This document shows positions 1 to 35,019 of a stretch of 54,435 bases of DNA, one piece after another. Every line of letters starts with the position of its first letter. The first letter of the stretch is position 1. The notes beneath the pieces were generated by a model, which was not told the DNA's origin, made no database searches, and was given only the letters and a program-made list of their open reading frames with translations. The position numbers were made by a program, and so were the translations under genes. Source of the stretch: a virus (Duplodnaviria; Caudoviricetes); IMG/VR virus record IMGVR_UViG_3300028070_000001, positions 1 to 54,435 of that record; one strand, written 5' to 3'.

Positions 1-94
1 CTCATTATCTCTCCAATCATCAGCCGCGCTTGAGTGTCGTGGTCACCCGTTATCGCGGTTCTGTCGGTCGTACATCCACATCAACGCCGATCTT

Positions 95-171
95 TGGATG
101 GGAAGGAAAGTCTCGAACTTTCTGCCTCTAGGTTCAGGGCCTAGCGTTCATACCTGTTGAACTTCTTCCCA
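95..171 (-). tRNA. trnQ: tRNA-Gln(CTG), atypical C33
   Basis: Cloverleaf TGGGAAG...CTTCCCA-T-CCA; anticodon arm CTAGG-CCCTGAA-CCTAG; T arm GAAAG-TTCGAGA-CTTTC; encoded CCA. Confidence 0.9.
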
Positions 172-179
172 ACTTAAAC

Positions 180-254
180 TGGCTGTGCAGGCGAGAGTCG
201 GACTCGCATCTTTTTGATTAACGATCAAAAGCATTACCGTTATGCTACCGCACA
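180..254 (-). tRNA. trnN: tRNA-Asn(GTT), atypical C33 and TCC T-loop
   Basis: TGTGCGG...CTGCACA-G-CCA; anticodon arm TTTGA-TCGTTAA-TCAAA; T arm GCGAG-TCCGACT-CTCGC. Confidence 0.88.
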
Positions 255-259
255 ATGCA

Positions 260-288
260 GAGGCCCCAAACTTTTGTCTGGGGCCTCA
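260..288 (-). terminator. Attenuator hairpin directly upstream of tRNA-Asn
   Basis: GAGGCCCCAGAC-AAAA-GTTTGGGGCCTC; U-tract weak (TGCATT); 5' arm complementary to GGGGCCTCA at 321-329. Confidence 0.6.
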
Positions 289-328
289 GTGTTTACTGCT
301 CTTATTATGGGGTAAGTCTTTGAGGCCC

Positions 329-400
329 CTATCCAGCACACGCATGATTACCGGCTGGTTGTGTCGGTGTCGTCGCTGCGGTCTGGAATCGGTTTCTCAT
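329..400 (-). CDS. Putative leader (attenuator) peptide MRNRFQTAATTPTQPAGNHACAG, 23 aa
   Basis: ATG at the predicted transcription start of a sigma70-like promoter; stop codon overlaps the antiterminator segment; below the ORF track cutoff. Confidence 0.65.
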   Translation of the reverse strand: MRNRFQTAATTPTQPAGNHACAG

Positions 401-407
401 GTTTTTC

Positions 408-436
408 ACTGTACCAACTTCTTTCGGTGTTGTCAA
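408..436 (-). promoter_or_regulatory. Sigma70-like promoter for leader peptide and Asn/Gln tRNA operon
   Basis: TTGACA-17 bp-TACAGT, 7 nt upstream of the ATG at 400. Confidence 0.75.
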
Positions 437-451
437 GAACTATTTTAAAAC

Positions 452-598
452 TTTGCGCGGTCCAGAACTGTCGTCCAGGATTTCTTCATCGTGACACTCC
501 GTAGACTTCCGGCCTAAGAAGATTGGCTACCGACTCTTCGCGTTTCTACGGGTCGCCCCGTCGATAGCTTTGCGTGTCCATCCACGCCGCCGCGCAAA
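452..598 (-). ncRNA. tRNA-like / Y-RNA-like structured RNA
   Basis: Closing stem TTTGCGCGG/CCGCGCAAA; D-arm-like GCGT-GGATGGAC-ACGC; internal stem CCGTAGA/TCTACGG; 3' hairpin just before the closing strand. Confidence 0.55.
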
Positions 599-599
599 C

Positions 600-740
600 T
601 CATAAACTTTGTACCCACAACAAGAATATCAGAATCGACAACCAGAACAGCTTCTTCAGAAACTTAATTACTAATCCTAGCGCGATCTCGGTTCTCGTTA
701 TAGGCATAATCTTTGGACCGGGCGTAAGGTTTAGCCTCAC
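600..740 (-). CDS. Small hydrophobic (membrane) protein, 46 aa
   Basis: GTG-start ORF ending LFWLSILIFLLWVQSL, co-oriented with the tRNAs. Confidence 0.35.
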   Translation of the reverse strand: MRLNLTPGPKIMPITRTEIALGLVIKFLKKLFWLSILIFLLWVQSL

Positions 741-796
741 TCTGCTTCCCCATAGGCTATCCATGGAATCCTATAGGTGCTTTCTACCCGGATACT

Positions 797-871
797 TGGT
801 AGCGAGTATGGAATTTGAATCCATGTACCAGCCTTGAAGGGGCCGTATCCTAACCACTAGATGAACTCGCC
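797..871 (-). tRNA. trnE: tRNA-Glu(TTC), atypical C33
   Basis: GGCGAGT...ACTCGCT-A-CCA; anticodon arm CGGCC-CCTTCAA-GGCTG; T loop TTCAAAT. Confidence 0.9.
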
Positions 872-878
872 ACAAACT

Positions 879-1148
879 CTACTTTGCCACAAAACCTTCT
901 TTTTTTGTCCAAATCGCAGGACCAATGTTGCTAGTCCTAATCGTGCTAGTATCAATTCCAGACTTCTCAACCAGTTCATCAAAGTCTTCCTTCGACATTG
1001 TGACCACTTCTTGAATCCCACATTTATCTACGCACTCGTGGTGTTTACGCAAGTCTCTTTCGGAAGCATAAATAGTGTTTCCACCCGATGCTTCTCCTAG
1101 TTCCCAATCGAAATCTACGGCGCACATCCATCCCGGTACTGCTCTCAT
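879..1148 (-). CDS. Hypothetical phage protein, 89 aa
   Basis: ORF with RBS CAGGAGAG, filling the gap between tRNA-Asp and tRNA-Glu. Confidence 0.7.
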   Translation of the reverse strand: MRAVPGWMCAVDFDWELGEASGGNTIYASERDLRKHHECVDKCGIQEVVTMSKEDFDELVEKSGIDTSTIRTSNIGPAIWTKKEGFVAK

Positions 1149-1166
1149 TTAACTCTCCTGTTATCA

Positions 1167-1240
1167 TGGCGGTGACGACGGAAATTGAATCCGCATCCAT
1201 TCCCGTGACAAGGGAAGACTTTACGTTAAGCTACGTCACC
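1167..1240 (-). tRNA. trnD: tRNA-Asp(GTC)
   Basis: GGTGACG...CGTCACC-G-CCA; anticodon arm TTCCC-TTGTCAC-GGGAA. Confidence 0.92.
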
Positions 1241-1248
1241 AAACTCTA

Positions 1249-2070
1249 GTGCTCCGTGCGGTGTTAGGAATTAGAACTAGGGACCGATTTTCCTAATTCA
1301 TCCTTCTCTTTTTTAAGAATTATCCATCGGACAGGATAATTCAAGAGCTTCCCATGCAACAGAGCACATATCGAACTTTGCCCTTTTCCCTCTCCGGGCC
1401 AGAGTTAAGGAGAAGTTACACGACTGAAAAACGAAGTATCATGTAACTACCGGGAACTTTTAGCAAGTCGTCCATACCGAGCATGGATCGTCCAAATAGC
1501 ATTTCTGCTTACCATCTCACCTTTGCTCCTCGGTAGACGGTATCTATCGACTTGCCAATTGCGCATCCGGGATACGTTATATCTGGTGATTTGCAACTCG
1601 CGTTTGTTGCTATCGTCCAGTATCCTAGCGTATAGCTCAAGTGGATTCAGCGTATCCCAGAAAACTTTTCATCGGGATAGGACTTTCACCTATCACTTTG
1701 TACCCTGCCGGAGCGCAGATTCATTCGTAGGTTTCCCATTTCTCCGCAACCATTTTGGTTTTCCAAAATAGATGATAAGAGTATCCCACTAGGCGTTCAT
1801 GTTCCGTCTTGCCGATGAAAACTGTGACCGTCTTTCCGGTCTGTCAGCCCTACTCGCGGGACCACGTTAGTGACCAAAATGCCGGTCGGATACAACCTAA
1901 TTGCATAGTGCAGGATTGGATACCTGCCGAGTGGTCGCCCGATTATTACATGGAACGGAGCCATGCCCCCACCACGCGTAATTGCTCCGCGTGAACTCAC
2001 GACTATGCAAACTCTGCGGGGATGGACCACTCCCAACCCCGATGCACCGATTCTATATGGTCGGTGGTTA
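1249..2070 (-). ncRNA. About 820-nt tract of tandem structured RNA modules
   Basis: Successive closing stems at 1249-1367 (GTGCTCTGT/ACGGAGCAC), 1414-1448, 1462-1556 (GCAAGTCG/CGACTTGC), 1567-1660 (CTGGGATACG/CGTATCCCGG), 1666-1821 (TTTTCATCGG/CCGATGAAAA) and 1901-2010 (TTGCATAGT/ACTATGCAA); no convincing ORF. Confidence 0.65.
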
Positions 2071-2073
2071 ATC

Positions 2074-2150
2074 TGGTTGCAGGCGCACGCTCCGACCGTG
2101 CCGATGTGTGCGTTATGAGCGCACCGAGACGCCTTTTCTCCATGCCTGCG
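2074..2150 (-). tRNA. tRNA-Met(CAT), initiator-like (C1:A72 mismatch), divergent T loop
   Basis: CGCAGGC...GCCTGCA-A-CCA; anticodon arm GTGCG-CTCATAA-CGCAC; T arm GCACG-GTCGGAG-CGTGC. Confidence 0.8.
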
Positions 2151-2156
2151 AATTAA

Positions 2157-2185
2157 ACAATAGCGCATTCCGATTTACTTGTCAA
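2157..2185 (-). promoter_or_regulatory. Sigma70-like promoter for the tRNA-Met/ncRNA/Asp/Glu transcript
   Basis: TTGACA-17 bp-TATTGT. Confidence 0.7.
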
Positions 2186-2198
2186 GATAAATCTGCGC

Positions 2199-2603
2199 TT
2201 ATTTGATGATTCCTTGTGAAAACGCCTTTCCTCTGTTTGGTTCGGGAGACAGGATATACTCTTTATCAAATACCCATTCCGCATCAGGATAGGAGCGCTC
2301 TAAAATACTGCAATGAGCATCGTCAAAAGACTTACGCATTATGTGCTTTACGGCTTTATTTTGCTCCTTATTAGGAATCGACGCATCTATTGTCCCTAGC
2401 ACAGAAGCAAGAAGAACACGCAAATTAGGTACAACTATTCCGTTGACTATTTTGTTAACAATTGGGAATGATTCCTTTGTGGTGAGAATATCGCTTGCGG
2501 ATTCGTCTTCAATCGTTTCATGGATAATTTTGGAAGTACCATCTTCAAATATTACGGTGTCTGGGCAAATTGTGGATGGTTGAAATGCTAGAGGTAAGCT
2601 CAT
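2199..2603 (-). CDS. Hypothetical protein (likely start MSLPL at 2603)
   Basis: ORF track 2199..2672; AAGGGAAACC precedes the ATG at 2603. Confidence 0.65.
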   Translation of the reverse strand: MSLPLAFQPSTICPDTVIFEDGTSKIIHETIEDESASDILTTKESFPIVNKIVNGIVVPNLRVLLASVLGTIDASIPNKEQNKAVKHIMRKSFDDAHCSILERSYPDAEWVFDKEYILSPEPNRGKAFSQGIIK

Positions 2604-2701
2604 GGTTTCCCTTTCAAAGTTTCCGGTTGCTTTACGTCTTGCCGGAACGACGGAATGAAAACAGTGTAGCACAGAACCGATTTGTGGTGTATATTTATCT
2701 T

Positions 2702-3121
2702 ATGAAACCACGCGATTTGAACGAAAACAACTGGGATGTGAATGTAGCGGTCTTTGAAGCACCCTGCTTCGATGCCCGCATAACGGCTGATGGAAAGAAA
2801 ATTTGGTTCCGCGTATCCATCGGACTGTGCTTCGCCGATATTACGATACCGATCTCTGATTTTCGGAAGTCTGTTGACTTCATCAGCAAGTTCGACGTAG
2901 CCACATTAAAACCTGACGGTAATTCCGCAGGAAGAACGTTAGGCTCCTATTACATAGATATATCAAATTCCATCGGGTCATTCAGGCAGGGAAAGATTAA
3001 ATATAGGAAAACACCCGCTGTCGTGCTGATTGCACCATACAGCCAGAAGCGCAACCACAGCATTGCTTTGCGACTCAGCCTGTTTAAGAAAATCGTTCGC
3101 TGGTACAACTCGGATATTTAG
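2702..3121 (+). CDS. Hypothetical protein, opposite in orientation to the tRNA operons
   Basis: ORF track 2570..3121; ATG at 2702 avoids overlap with the neighbour. Confidence 0.55.
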   Translation: MKPRDLNENNWDVNVAVFEAPCFDARITADGKKIWFRVSIGLCFADITIPISDFRKSVDFISKFDVATLKPDGNSAGRTLGSYYIDISNSIGSFRQGKIKYRKTPAVVLIAPYSQKRNHSIALRLSLFKKIVRWYNSDI

Positions 3122-3123
3122 AC

Positions 3124-3215
3124 TGGTGCGTCGGGAAGGATTTTAACCTCCGGTGTTCACCGCTCTGGGTATCCGCTCTACAGGCGGACGCATTCAAACG
3201 CTCTGCCACCGACGC
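3124..3215 (-). tRNA. trnY: tRNA-Tyr(GTA)
   Basis: Anticodon arm TCCGC-CTGTAGA-GCGGA; long variable arm; CCA end. Confidence 0.9.
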
Positions 3216-3221
3216 ACATCA

Positions 3222-3310
3222 TGGAGGAGAGCAAGGTATCGAAACCTAATGCCATCGCTGACATTCCACGGGTTTCAGGTCCGTTTGGCTAACCCTAGCC
3301 GGTACTCTCC
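3222..3310 (-). tRNA. trnS: tRNA-Ser(TGA), atypical C33
   Basis: Anticodon loop CCTGAAA in ACGGA/CCCGT stem; long variable arm; CCA end. Confidence 0.8.
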
Positions 3311-3316
3311 AAACTA

Positions 3317-3402
3317 TGGCGGATGGTTGAGAAATCGAATCCCCTTCCTTTCGGAAGCCTCCTGCTTTCGAGGCAGGCTGAGTACCTTACTCAGAACCAT
3401 CC
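3317..3402 (-). tRNA. trnS: tRNA-Ser(CGA)
   Basis: CCTGC-CTCGAAA-GCAGG; variable arm CTTCC-GAAA-GGAAG; GCCA end. Confidence 0.88.
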
Positions 3403-3407
3403 GTAAC

Positions 3408-3494
3408 TGGCGGGAAGCATACCAATCGAAGGCAACTCCTTGCGGAGCCAACGGTTTTCCAATCCGTGCCGTAGACCTCTACGGTTTACTTCCC
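3408..3494 (-). tRNA. trnS: tRNA-Ser(GGA)
   Basis: ACGGA-TTGGAAA-ACCGT; variable arm CTCC-GCAA-GGAG; GCCA end. Confidence 0.85.
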
Positions 3495-3499
3495 AAAAA

Positions 3500-3586
3500 T
3501 GGAGGAGAGCCAGTCGCACGATGACTATTCCCGCAGGAACCAATCGATTAGCAGTCGATGCCTACAACCTTATAGGTTGACTCTCC
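3500..3586 (-). tRNA. trnS: tRNA-Ser(GCT)
   Basis: ATCGA-CTGCTAA-TCGAT; long variable arm; divergent T loop ATCGTGC. Confidence 0.82.
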
Positions 3587-3593
3587 GTAAATC

Positions 3594-3680
3594 TGGTGCC
3601 GGTCGGGGGACTTGAACCCCCATACCAATTAAGGCGCTCCGCCTTGAACGGAGTGTGTCTGCGAATTCCACCAGACCGGC
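3594..3680 (-). tRNA. trnL: tRNA-Leu(CAA)
   Basis: CTCCG-TTCAAGG-CGGAG; T arm GGGGG-TTCAAGT-CCCCC; ACCA end. Confidence 0.92.
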
Positions 3681-3692
3681 AATACTAAACTA

Positions 3693-3783
3693 TGGTAGCC
3701 CCGGAGAGATTCGAACTCTCAATGTCGCTGTTCGCAACGCTGGTTCCTAAGGCCAGTGCCTGGACCAATCCGGCGTCGGGGCC
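3693..3783 (-). tRNA. trnL: tRNA-Leu(TAG)
   Basis: CTGGC-CTTAGGA-ACCAG; T arm GAGAG-TTCGAAT-CTCTC. Confidence 0.9.
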
Positions 3784-3796
3784 ACAACTTAAACTA

Positions 3797-3870
3797 TGGA
3801 GAGCACGGCCAGAATAGAACTGGCGTAAACGGATTTGCAGTCCGCTGCATAACCACTCTGCTACGCGCTC
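3797..3870 (-). tRNA. trnC: tRNA-Cys(GCA)
   Basis: GCGGA-CTGCAAA-TCCGT; U73 discriminator; CCA end. Confidence 0.93.
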
Positions 3871-3871
3871 A

Positions 3872-3960
3872 TGGTGCGGGAAGTCGGACTCTAACCGACA
3901 CGGGATTTAACTCCCAAAGGGGTTTAGGCCCTTCATGTCTAACAGTTCCATCATTCCCGC
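3872..3960 (-). tRNA. trnL: tRNA-Leu(TAA), atypical C33
   Basis: AAGGG-CCTAAAC-CCCTT; long variable arm; A73-CCA. Confidence 0.85.
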
Positions 3961-3995
3961 ACAAAACAAAAGCCCCTGAATCTCTTCAGAGGCTT
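3961..3995 (-). terminator. Intrinsic terminator (attenuator) immediately upstream of the Leu/Cys/Ser/Tyr tRNA cluster
   Basis: AAGCCTCTGAA-GAGA-TTCAGGGGCTT followed by TTGTTTTGT. Confidence 0.8.
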
Positions 3996-4022
3996 GTCGA
4001 ACGAATCTTTTTGAGACTCAGT

Positions 4023-4091
4023 TCAAACACGCCTCCAAATTGCCAATGACAGGCAATATGACGATAGCGATAAACTGAGAGTATTTTCCAT
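4023..4091 (-). CDS. Putative leader (attenuator) peptide MENTLSLSLSSYCLSLAIWRRV, 22 aa
   Basis: 12 consecutive Leu/Ser/Tyr/Cys codons; 3' end complementary to the terminator 5' arm; promoter just upstream. Confidence 0.75.
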   Translation of the reverse strand: MENTLSLSLSSYCLSLAIWRRV

Positions 4092-4100
4092 ATCAAAACC

Positions 4101-4129
4101 AGTGTTTCACGGATTCAAGATGTTGTCAA
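4101..4129 (-). promoter_or_regulatory. Sigma70-like promoter for leader peptide and tRNA cluster
   Basis: TTGACA-17 bp-AACACT (weak -10), 9 nt upstream of the ATG at 4091. Confidence 0.55.
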
Positions 4130-4132
4130 GTC

Positions 4133-4402
4133 CTATTGTGCAATGTTTTTCTGCGTCCACTTCGGGCGAAACGGTTCCCTGTTCTGCGGCTTACCATACA
4201 TGCCAATATACGGCCTTGCCACAAAACTGGTCGCATGTGTGTTGTGGGACTCAAAGCGCAGTCCCTTGACTGGTGTGCATCCTTGTCCTTCCCTCGCTCC
4301 ACATACGGGGCACCAAAGGGATAGACGACTCGTGCAATAGTGCGTTTGAATTTCAATTTCCACTGTTTTCCTCCTCAGTACGGCGAGGTGCAAGAACATC
4401 AT
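4133..4402 (-). CDS. Small zinc-finger-like protein (start uncertain)
   Basis: CPVCGAREGQGC...H motif. Confidence 0.45.
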   Translation of the reverse strand: MMFLHLAVLRRKTVEIEIQTHYCTSRLSLWCPVCGAREGQGCTPVKGLRFESHNTHATSFVARPYIGMYGKPQNREPFRPKWTQKNIAQ

Positions 4403-4550
4403 CGGTTACTATCTCGCCCTCCAACTCCTCGATTGCCTCTTGAATCTGTGCCTTGACTATCTGTGCAAAGACCGCTCCACCCTTTACTACGTTGTCGCAA
4501 TTGACCTCAGCACATCGAAGAATTTCTACTACTTTTTCCGTGTCAATCAT
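4353..4550 (-). CDS. Hypothetical protein
   Basis: ORF with AGGAGAG RBS in a tightly packed operon. Confidence 0.65.
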   Translation of the reverse strand: MIDTEKVVEILRCAEVNCDNVVKGGAVFAQIVKAQIQEAIEELEGEIVTDDVLAPRRTEEENSGN

Positions 4551-33885: not shown

Positions 33886-35019
33886 CTAATCGGTAGCGAG
33901 TATACAATTCTGTTTTGACGCAAGGCTTTCCCCAAGCCTTAAAATGTTTAGTGCCGCGTTATGGTCACGTCCCAAAGATAATCCACATTTCGGACAATCG
34001 TGATGCCTGTCCCAGATTTTCTTTGGTACTTTCTCCCCACAACCACTGCATATTTGTGTCGTACCGCGTGGATTGACTGGTATTACCCATTTCCCGGCGC
34101 ATTCTGCCTCTGAATTGAGTTTGAATATCAGTTGTCCCCATGCAGCATCCAAAATACTCTTCGCAAACATTGATTGAACCATGTTACTAATCTTTAAGTC
34201 TTCATGCGCAATCAGATCATACTCCCCTACTAACTGCTTTGCTACTCCTGTCAAGTACGAACTTCTTAGACCAGAAATCCGTTGATGGACCCTGCGAAGA
34301 TGCTCACGCGCCTTAATACTGTTCTTACTTCCTCGAATCTTACGAGACAAACTACGGTTCGCTTTAGCTAGTCTATCCTCTTCTTTTCTAGTCCATCGCG
34401 GATTAGGTATCTCTGTTCCATCGCTTAAAGTTGCAAGTGTAGTCAAACCAACATCTATACCAGTTGCATTACGAACTGCCGCTTTCTCTGGTGCTGGCCC
34501 AATGTCACATACTACCTGACCTTGCCACTTGTTCCCTATGCGCTTGACGCGGAATTCTTTAGGGGTTCCTTTAATTTTGTAGTGCGTCTTGAATTTGAAA
34601 CCACCTATGCCGCCAATTACAAACTCGTATTTTGACATCTTAAAACTATAAGAGTCAACAGTAAACGAATCGTATCTCTCAGAGGAACGAAAACGAGGAT
34701 ACCCCGGAGTTTCTCCACTCTTTACCCTCCGATAAAACCCATCAAACGCTCTCTGCAACCGACGCAATGGATCACGCTCAATTGCAGATGGCAACTCAGC
34801 GTACTCAGGAAACCAAGAACGAAGTGTTACTAATTCAGATTGCTGGTCGTAATACGTCAATGCAACATGGCTGTTTTCCCATTCCAACTTACGTTGATCC
34901 AACGCCATGTTGTAAATCGCACACAACTGGTCAAGAAGACGATCAAGACGATTATCTTGATTCTTCGTCACCTTTAATCGCATTGTGTACGTGCGCATCA
35001 TTAGTTCATTATACCACAT
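33886..35019 (-). CDS. tnpB: RNA-guided endonuclease TnpB (IS200/IS605 family), no tnpA
   Basis: N-terminal RTYTMRL...YN region; RuvC GIDVGL, HEDL and RDHNAALNI; Zn finger CSGC/CPKC; likely start near 35001. Confidence 0.92.
   Translation of the reverse strand: MWYNELMMRTYTMRLKVTKNQDNRLDRLLDQLCAIYNMALDQRKLEWENSHVALTYYDQQSELVTLRSWFPEYAELPSAIERDPLRRLQRAFDGFYRRVKSGETPGYPRFRSSERYDSFTVDSYSFKMSKYEFVIGGIGGFKFKTHYKIKGTPKEFRVKRIGNKWQGQVVCDIGPAPEKAAVRNATGIDVGLTTLATLSDGTEIPNPRWTRKEEDRLAKANRSLSRKIRGSKNSIKAREHLRRVHQRISGLRSSYLTGVAKQLVGEYDLIAHEDLKISNMVQSMFAKSILDAAWGQLIFKLNSEAECAGKWVIPVNPRGTTQICSGCGEKVPKKIWDRHHDCPKCGLSLGRDHNAALNILRLGESLASKQNCILATD

Follow-up and report, generated by a model that had tools for sequence, protein, structure and literature searches.

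A candidate leaderless leader-peptide attenuator ahead of a tRNA block in an uncultured phage contig

How might a phage that carries a long array of transfer RNA (tRNA) genes adjust their output to the state of decoding in the cell? This question is raised by IMG/VR virus record IMGVR_UViG_3300028070_000001, whose whole assembly, a single phage-like contig of 54,435 bp with 47.9% G+C, was analyzed and is called the window here. At the left end of the contig lies a minus-strand tRNA array, detected using ARAGORN, Rfam, and ARAGORN at a lowered threshold, and between its tRNA-Glu and tRNA-Asn genes lies an element at 436–255 (minus strand), referred to as leader 2. We propose, with a probability of roughly 0.65, that this element is a ribosome-sensed, leaderless leader-peptide transcription attenuator that heads a phage tRNA operon and feeds back on tRNA supply. 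The sequence anatomy of the element, its conservation, and its amino-acid and codon match to the tRNAs behind it are directly established, and the alternative folds are predicted. Where transcription starts, that the open reading frame (ORF) is translated, that the hairpin terminates transcription, and in which direction the element responds are presumed.

Anatomy of the leader 2 element and its copies

All parts of the element lie on the minus strand. A -35 hexamer matching the consensus at six of six positions (431–436) is followed, after a spacer of 17 nucleotides (nt), by a -10 hexamer with a four-of-six match (408–413) that is preceded by TG, and the promoter scan called this sigma-70-like site at 10/12. 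The ATG lies 7 nt past the -10 hexamer with no Shine-Dalgarno sequence, and it opens a leaderless ORF of 23 sense codons (329–400; ATG 400–398, stop 331–329). The codons of this ORF include both Asn, both Gln, all four Ala, and three Thr codons, and Leu, Ser, and Tyr are absent.

Three segments follow that could pair in two ways. Segment 1 (321–329), the putative 5′ strand of an anti-terminator, overlaps the stop codon by one base, and its 9-mer 329–321 is the exact complement of 288–280. Segment 2 (276–288) comprises this partner of segment 1 (288–280) and the 5′ arm of a hairpin (287–276), and segment 3 (260–271) is the 3′ arm of the hairpin, which has its loop at 275–272 and a weak T-tract running into the tRNA. 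The hairpin (287–276/271–260) is a perfect 12-bp stem with an energy of −23.2 kcal/mol, ending 5 nt ahead of tRNA-Asn. Because the same bases serve both pairings, the segment 1–2 and segment 2–3 structures are mutually exclusive. The core 8-mer and its reverse complement have three occurrences in the 54,435-bp genome, all within the leader 2 element. The RNA of 255–335 has a predicted minimum free energy (MFE) of −30.6 kcal/mol (z = −3.79; none of 200 shuffles as good) and folds the hairpin at full length; the same RNA cut ahead of the 3′ arm is predicted to pair segment 1 with segment 2 (−18.8 kcal/mol, z = −2.62; 2 of 200 shuffles as good). No match to the leader and attenuator families of Rfam or to the T-box was found in 255–436 at the gathering score, nor at E values up to 5.

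The original prediction for this locus (255–436) had named a promoter of two hexamers 17 nt apart, a leaderless ORF of 23 amino acids with the codon content described above, and a segment at the stop codon complementary to the hairpin 5′ arm. All of these are present where the prediction placed them.

Relatives of the locus were fetched using an 89-amino-acid protein encoded between tRNA-Asp and tRNA-Glu, a 90-amino-acid protein encoded upstream of the array, and an HNH-type protein encoded between two Thr tRNAs. Ten further distinct copies of the element were found in related uncultured phage contigs (L014, L015, L011, L012, L005, L007, L019, L021, L022, and L025), giving 11 distinct copies including that of the window; loci L008, L017, L018, L020, L023, and L024 are repeats of these copies. 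All ten sit immediately 5′ of tRNA-Asn. The perfect -35 hexamer and the 17-nt spacer are found in 11 of 11 copies (measured in 7 of 7 and read by eye in 4), and the -10 hexamers are of the TA...T type, with one near-consensus variant. The start codon lies 6–10 nt past the -10 hexamer in the 11 copies (7 nt in 8 of them) and is ATG in ten copies and GTG in L022. The base preceding the ATG is C in the seven copies examined, which fits a transcription start at the A. The length of the leader ORF ranges from 20 to 31 codons. In the more distant relatives L010 and L013, the tRNAs are dispersed and there is no such leader.

The plus-strand ORF 242–448 was considered as an antisense gene and rejected: it overlaps tRNA-Asn, and the corresponding ORFs of L011, L007, and L021, which enter tRNAs too, vary in their extent.

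The block behind the element begins in the window with tRNA-Asn (GUU) at 180–254, found by ARAGORN and scored by Rfam as a tRNA at 58.5 bits. Its second gene is tRNA-Gln (CUG) at 95–171, found by ARAGORN at the lowered threshold and by Rfam at 98–171 (53.1 bits). The contig stops 94 nt past this gene, so any further genes of the Asn-headed run would lie outside the window. In the relatives, the run reads Asn, Gln(CUG), Gln(UUG), Gly(GCC), Thr(CGU), Thr(UGU), His, Ala, Phe, Pro, and Arg(ACG), with ARAGORN gaps at Ala in L012 and L025, Phe in L022, and Pro in L019; in all contigs showing the run, the stretch from Asn to Arg is free of tRNAs for other amino acids. A near relative, L015, has flanking stretches 84–95% identical to the window, and its spacer after tRNA-Gln(CUG) is 84% identical to the last 80 nt of the window at this end. 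The array of the window very probably continues in the same way beyond the contig end. From the leader codons, tRNAs for Thr, Ala, Pro, Arg, Gly, His, or Phe had been predicted beyond position 1. The window itself ends too early to show them, and exactly these amino acids, plus Asn and Gln, are served by the run in the related contigs.

Match between the leader and its tRNA block

The amino-acid set of the block behind leader 2, called block 2, consists of Asn, Gln, Gly, Thr, His, Ala, Phe, Pro, and Arg. In the window leader, 21 of the 22 residues after the initiator belong to this set, and codons 2–19 already cover all nine amino acids. The same holds for the family: all nine occur in each of the 11 leaders, and 228 of 259 residues after the initiator are in the set. 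When the peptides were compared by eye, the order of the residues was reshuffled between copies and the set was kept.

This composition was compared with that of other small ORFs in the genome of the window (first ATG to stop, 20–32 codons, six frames). The 170 such ORFs have a mean in-set share of 0.47 (standard deviation 0.11), and the leader, at 0.95, is the only one to reach 0.80 or more; the leader is also one of 4 among the 170 in which all nine amino-acid types are present. If the proteome share of 0.503 is taken as the expectation, the probability of at least 21 of 22 residues falling in the set is 6e-6. A blind screen was also performed, in which every ORF with an ATG start and 14–45 codons located up to 280 nt upstream of each tRNA run was scored against the amino acids of that run. 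The leaders came first in each relative (p = 3e-5 to 2e-3 among 12–18 ORFs). The same screen on phage T5 (first 50 kb, all annotated tRNAs) showed no codon-matched leader, the best p value being 0.05 of 23 ORFs.

The match extends from amino acids to codons, which were judged readable or not under strict wobble in seven copies. Among the Thr, Gly, Arg, Ala, and Pro codons of the seven leaders, 82 are read by the anticodons of the block and 25 are not (genome share 0.519, p = 1e-7), and in the four most divergent leaders, the counts are 46 readable and 14 not (p = 7e-5). Position within the leader matters as well. At codons where a ribosome stalled on the leader would keep clear of segment 1, 124 of 131 residues belong to the set, compared with 28 of 41 at the remaining 3′ codons (Fisher p = 3e-5), and most of the out-of-set exceptions among the upstream codons are codon 2. 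Comparison with the relatives supports the original reading of the element as a second codon sensor.

These data bear on two explanations in which the ORF would not act as a sensor. In one of them, the ORF would be untranslated, the promoter and a structured 5′ leader would stabilize or process the tRNA precursor, and the amino-acid match would arise by chance or from another cause. The absence of a Shine-Dalgarno sequence, the lack of coverage of the leader by RNA contigs, and the abundance of short ORFs (170 of 20–32 codons in the genome) are compatible with this explanation, which we nevertheless consider very unlikely: all 11 copies have an open frame that begins at the same start, the stop always lies beside segment 1, the first three indels that the alignment shows within the ORF have lengths divisible by three, and the composition, codon choice, and position effects are far from chance. 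The same logic also recurs with other amino-acid sets before two other tRNA blocks, as described below. In the other explanation, the ORF would encode a small peptide acting on its own, and its placement before the tRNAs would be incidental. Its retention in 11 contigs and the recurrence of some near-start residues and of a short central stretch speak for such a peptide. However, composition is kept and order is not, Phe, His, and Arg being found by eye at different codon positions between copies; the length varies from 20 to 31 residues with no hydrophobic core or recognizable motif; and a free peptide leaves the link to segment 1 and the codon-anticodon match unexplained. We regard it as highly improbable. 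Both explanations fail to account for the codon match, the position effect, and the tie between the stop codon and segment 1.

Proposed mechanism and the output of the hairpin

In the mechanism that we propose, the host RNA polymerase would start at or within one base of the ATG, producing a leaderless transcript, and a 70S ribosome would translate the 23-codon ORF, in which each of the nine amino acids of the downstream tRNAs is represented among codons 2 to 19 (Asn and Gln in the window; Gly, Thr, His, Ala, Phe, Pro, and Arg in the relatives). If all codons were read quickly, the ribosome at the stop codon would cover segment 1, and the hairpin of segments 2 and 3 would end or curb transcription before tRNA-Asn. 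If any codon were slow, the ribosome would wait upstream and segment 1 would be free to capture segment 2 once it was made, so that the hairpin would be blocked and the polymerase would enter the tRNA genes. An untranslated leader would give read-through. The outcome would be negative feedback on decoding capacity, with expression of the tRNA block rising when host tRNAs are depleted.

The predicted folds of the copies are consistent with this switch. For five copies at two stall positions each, the nascent RNA cut after segment 2 had the segment 1–2 pairing as its MFE structure in 9 of 10 cases, and the full-length RNA is predicted to fold segments 2 and 3 together. Relative to the last base of the stop codon, the start of segment 1 falls between 22 nt upstream and 1 nt downstream in 11 of 11 copies, so that the segment overlaps or abuts the stop. 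Its duplex with the hairpin 5′ arm was outdone by 0 to 7.8% of 3000 random 36-nt genome windows, and in the window, L005, and L022, none of the 3000 was as strong. L007, L019, and L021 have three unrelated sets of segment sequences in the same layout, and between L022 and the window, both sides of one pair are changed. On this comparison, the three segments have changed together across copies.

The formal count of covariation offers only moderate support. In a model-fitted alignment, the proportion of paired cells is 75%, a value reached by 30 of 500 shuffles, and the covariation score is 0.256 (8 of 500). A covariance model of the segment 1–segment 2 helix re-found 8 of the 11 copies, three of them two columns out of register; the model-fitted alignment comprised ten matches, two of them doubtful, with the window, L005, and L022 two columns out of register, and in it each of six slid registers scores below the given one. 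A MAFFT alignment of seven tails, in which the hairpin arms were misaligned, gave 0 pairs with RNAalifold and was uninformative.

The main rival to an attenuator concerns what the folds do. In this explanation, the leader would be translated and the ribosome sensed, and the folds would control whether Rho gains access, whether the polymerase pauses, or how the tRNA precursor is processed by nucleases and how stable it is; in the window, this could be the 5′ maturation of tRNA-Asn. Its best argument is the weakness of the T-tracts: 4 of the first 7 copies have fewer than 5 T in the 8 positions after the hairpin, the weakest tails are those of the lineage of the window, and no terminator was called at the hairpin of the window itself. 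In addition, the hairpin of the window abuts the 5′ end of tRNA-Asn at a distance of 5 nt, and a short motif between the hairpin and tRNA-Asn is conserved in L014, L015, L011, L012, and L005, that is, in all of the first seven copies except those of the window and L007, and the attenuator model assigns it no function. On the other side, putative canonical terminators stand at the same place in four relatives, a clear T-tract being visible by eye after the hairpin in L007, L019, L021, and L025, and the scan called a terminator at the hairpin in L007 and L011. The sibling leaders 1 and 3, described below, also end in canonical terminators. The variant with Rho is not favored by the base composition of the leader ORFs (C 27–33%, G 24–30%), which has no marked excess of C, and a rut-like loading site is not evident. 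Taken together, we judge an output other than termination to be unlikely.

It could also be that the attenuator family is real and that the copy in the window has decayed, its promoter and leader reading through constitutively. The distance between hairpin and tRNA in the window (5 nt) is the shortest of the 11 apart from that of L025, the spacer motif kept by most relatives is missing, and the tail has 4 T in 8. Against decay, the window retains an intact ORF, whose in-set share (21 of 22) exceeds that of every other copy; its segment 1–2 pairing is a perfect 9 bp, among the strongest of the copies and equaled in none of the 3000 random windows; and its hairpin is a perfect 12 bp. We consider decay quite unlikely.

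Returning to the attenuator, several results weigh against it. As the original prediction had cautioned, the U-tract of the window is weak, with 4 T in 8 after the hairpin and no terminator call, and the shortage of T in four of the first seven tails and the moderate pair count add to this. The full-length RNA favors the terminator fold as the more stable one, so that formation of the anti-terminator would hinge on which helix folds first as the RNA is made. The -10 hexamers of the relatives match the consensus at three to five of six positions, and the scan missed the promoters of L007 and L011 (3/6 each). Promoter-like sites are no commoner in 1–4500 than in shuffles (5 versus 6.0 ± 2.8), which is a real weak point. 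When the window was taken alone and scored against its visible Asn and Gln tRNAs alone, the screen for leader 2 gave a p value of 0.11, which is not significant. Since the 11 copies are homologous, the p values given for them are not independent and overstate the number of trials. Finally, RNA contigs from three peat metatranscriptomes include parts of 1–4500, and none covers 151–750.

Sibling leaders, the surrounding array, and relation to known attenuators

Leader 2 is not the only leader of this kind in the array. Leader 1 (region 4131–3962, minus strand) consists of a promoter-like site followed by a 22-codon ORF (4091–4023), in which 12 of 21 residues are Leu, Ser, Tyr, or Cys, and a terminator called by the scan at 3995–3970. 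This terminator lies directly ahead of tRNAs Leu, Cys, Leu, Leu, three Ser, and Tyr, which occupy 3960–3124 in that order on the minus strand. The arrangement is common to four relatives (L011, L012, L014, and L015). An RNA contig spans 3734–4080, including the first terminator, with no difference from the DNA, and it may be DNA carry-over and proves no transcript. As a separate observation, the anti-terminator covariance model of leader 2 weakly matches the equivalent part of leader 1 at 3985–4023 (minus strand; 17.4 bits, E = 0.12). Leader 3 precedes a Trp-headed block in L011 (17560–17924, 28 codons) and L015 (13140–13472, 22 codons). It is rich in Thr (mainly the codons of the third-block isoacceptor), Arg, Gly, Ile, Met, Lys, Val, and Trp, and its layout again comprises a segment adjoining the stop codon, a shared segment in the middle, and a terminator followed by a T-tract.

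The share of leader residues falling in the amino-acid sets of tRNA blocks 1, 2, and 3 was calculated for each leader. The shares were 0.57, 0.27, and 0.27 for leader 1; 0.06, 0.89, and 0.39 for leader 2; and 0.02, 0.54, and 0.88 for leader 3. None of 50,000 permutations of the amino-acid labels reached this diagonal. For Thr, Gly, and Arg, which have other isoacceptors in the third block, the codons were also sorted by block: leader 2 has block-2 and block-3 types at 45:16, compared with 5:17 for leader 3 (Fisher p = 7e-5). The claim that leader 2 divides the code with the first leader is supported by these shares. We give about an even chance to the wider proposal that in this uncultured phage family the genetic code is divided between three or more attenuators, all leaderless and codon-matched, each gating the block whose tRNAs read its codons (Leu/Cys/Ser/Tyr; Asn to Arg; Trp/Met/Ile/Lys/Val and the rest). 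As a set, they would make up a self-regulating circuit of tRNA supply that senses decoding speed codon by codon and switches the phage tRNA genes on when host tRNAs are scarce or destroyed by tRNA-targeting defenses.

The remaining tRNA genes of the window, all on the minus strand, are a doubtful tRNA-Met (2150–2074; called by ARAGORN, with no Rfam call), tRNA-Asp (1240–1167), and tRNA-Glu (871–797). The three tRNA-Ser (3222–3490), tRNA-Glu (797–871), and tRNA-Gln (95–171) were missed by ARAGORN at default settings; the three tRNA-Ser appear solely at the lowered threshold, and Glu and Gln were recovered by Rfam. A strong promoter-like site (2157–2185, minus strand, 10/12) ends 6 nt ahead of the tRNA-Met, and a transcript from it would begin at or adjoining the mature 5′ end of that tRNA. 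An RNA contig joins 1664 back to 1561 (104 back) in the long stretch with no obvious gene between tRNA-Met and tRNA-Asp.

In the relatives, a gene for an HNH-type endonuclease of about 185 codons lies inside block 2 between tRNA-Thr(CGU) and tRNA-Thr(UGU) (L011 13301–13894, L015 7565–8116), and 226 viral stretches encode relatives of this endonuclease. At the edges of the arrays, tRNAs with anticodons that read stop codons (ARAGORN labels SeC tca, Pyl cta, and Stop tta) were found in L011 (14491–14564), L059 (1555), and L013 (9690–9764), and these may be suppressor tRNAs.

Elsewhere in the contig, an ORF of 377 amino acids (33886–35019, minus strand) matches the transposase family phrog_506 (E = 7e-87). 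The PHROGs search of ten large ORFs returned a tail fibre, a transposase, and one family of unknown function, by which phage and host are not placed. Comparison of the DNA of 1–4200 with cultured phages returned nothing beyond three short tRNA-Cys matches, and the neighboring 89-amino-acid protein gave, by tblastn against cultured phages, partial matches alone, in two Caulobacter phages. Bacterial genomes scanned with an alignment of the same protein contained no relative.

Leader-peptide attenuators regulate the amino-acid biosynthetic operons (trp, his, phe, leu, thr, and ilv), where they are a textbook form of control. The T-box, by comparison, binds uncharged tRNA directly with no ribosome involved, and it controls synthetase and amino-acid genes. 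The phage element resembles T-box riboswitches in coupling tRNA supply or charging to a choice between terminator and anti-terminator in a 5′ leader, and it differs from them in that it has no T-box match and that the ribosome is the proposed sensor.

The element also resembles the attenuators of amino-acid operons, a subject on which PMC1183508 and PMC3082878 are examples of the literature. Both have a short ORF with regulatory codons near the promoter and exclusive helices, one of them of the terminator type, and in both the position of the ribosome would select the helix, with slow decoding giving read-through, as is proposed for the phage element. However, the phage element would control tRNA genes, so that the sensed quantity is the product itself, and its sensor is multivalent, with nine amino acids at one to five codons each and not a run of a single codon. 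The phage messenger RNA is probably leaderless. The element has three segments and no separate pause or anti-antiterminator helix, and an untranslated phage element should therefore read through. A leaderless precedent exists in mycobacteria, where polycysteine short ORFs are reported to act as cysteine-responsive attenuators (bioRxiv 10.1101/834739). These likewise are leaderless first cistrons whose decoding speed is reported to set downstream expression; they sense one amino acid ahead of bacterial protein-coding operons, whereas the phage element has nine types ahead of tRNA genes. By analogy of mechanism, the proposed element belongs with the leader-peptide attenuators of amino-acid operons. 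It differs from the known attenuators in its control of tRNA genes, in the nine codon families sensed at once, and in the sets that divide the code. No description of leader-peptide control of tRNA genes was found in the literature searched, whose coverage stops short of older subscription papers (e.g., on the T5 tRNA region), and the searched passages of PMC10264068 contain no description of such control.

In summary, the logic of the textbook amino-acid operons is apparently applied here to tRNA genes, so that the tRNA pool would regulate its own supply via the ribosome. The prediction made from 23 codons held in related genomes, which suggests that leaders of this type can reveal how tRNA arrays are divided into operons. 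Being small, modular, and multivalent, the element could also serve as a natural sensor of decoding speed. If the proposal is true, it would explain how tRNA-rich phages dose their tRNAs, and it would provide a testable link between phage tRNA arrays and the depletion of host tRNAs, including depletion by tRNA-cleaving defenses.

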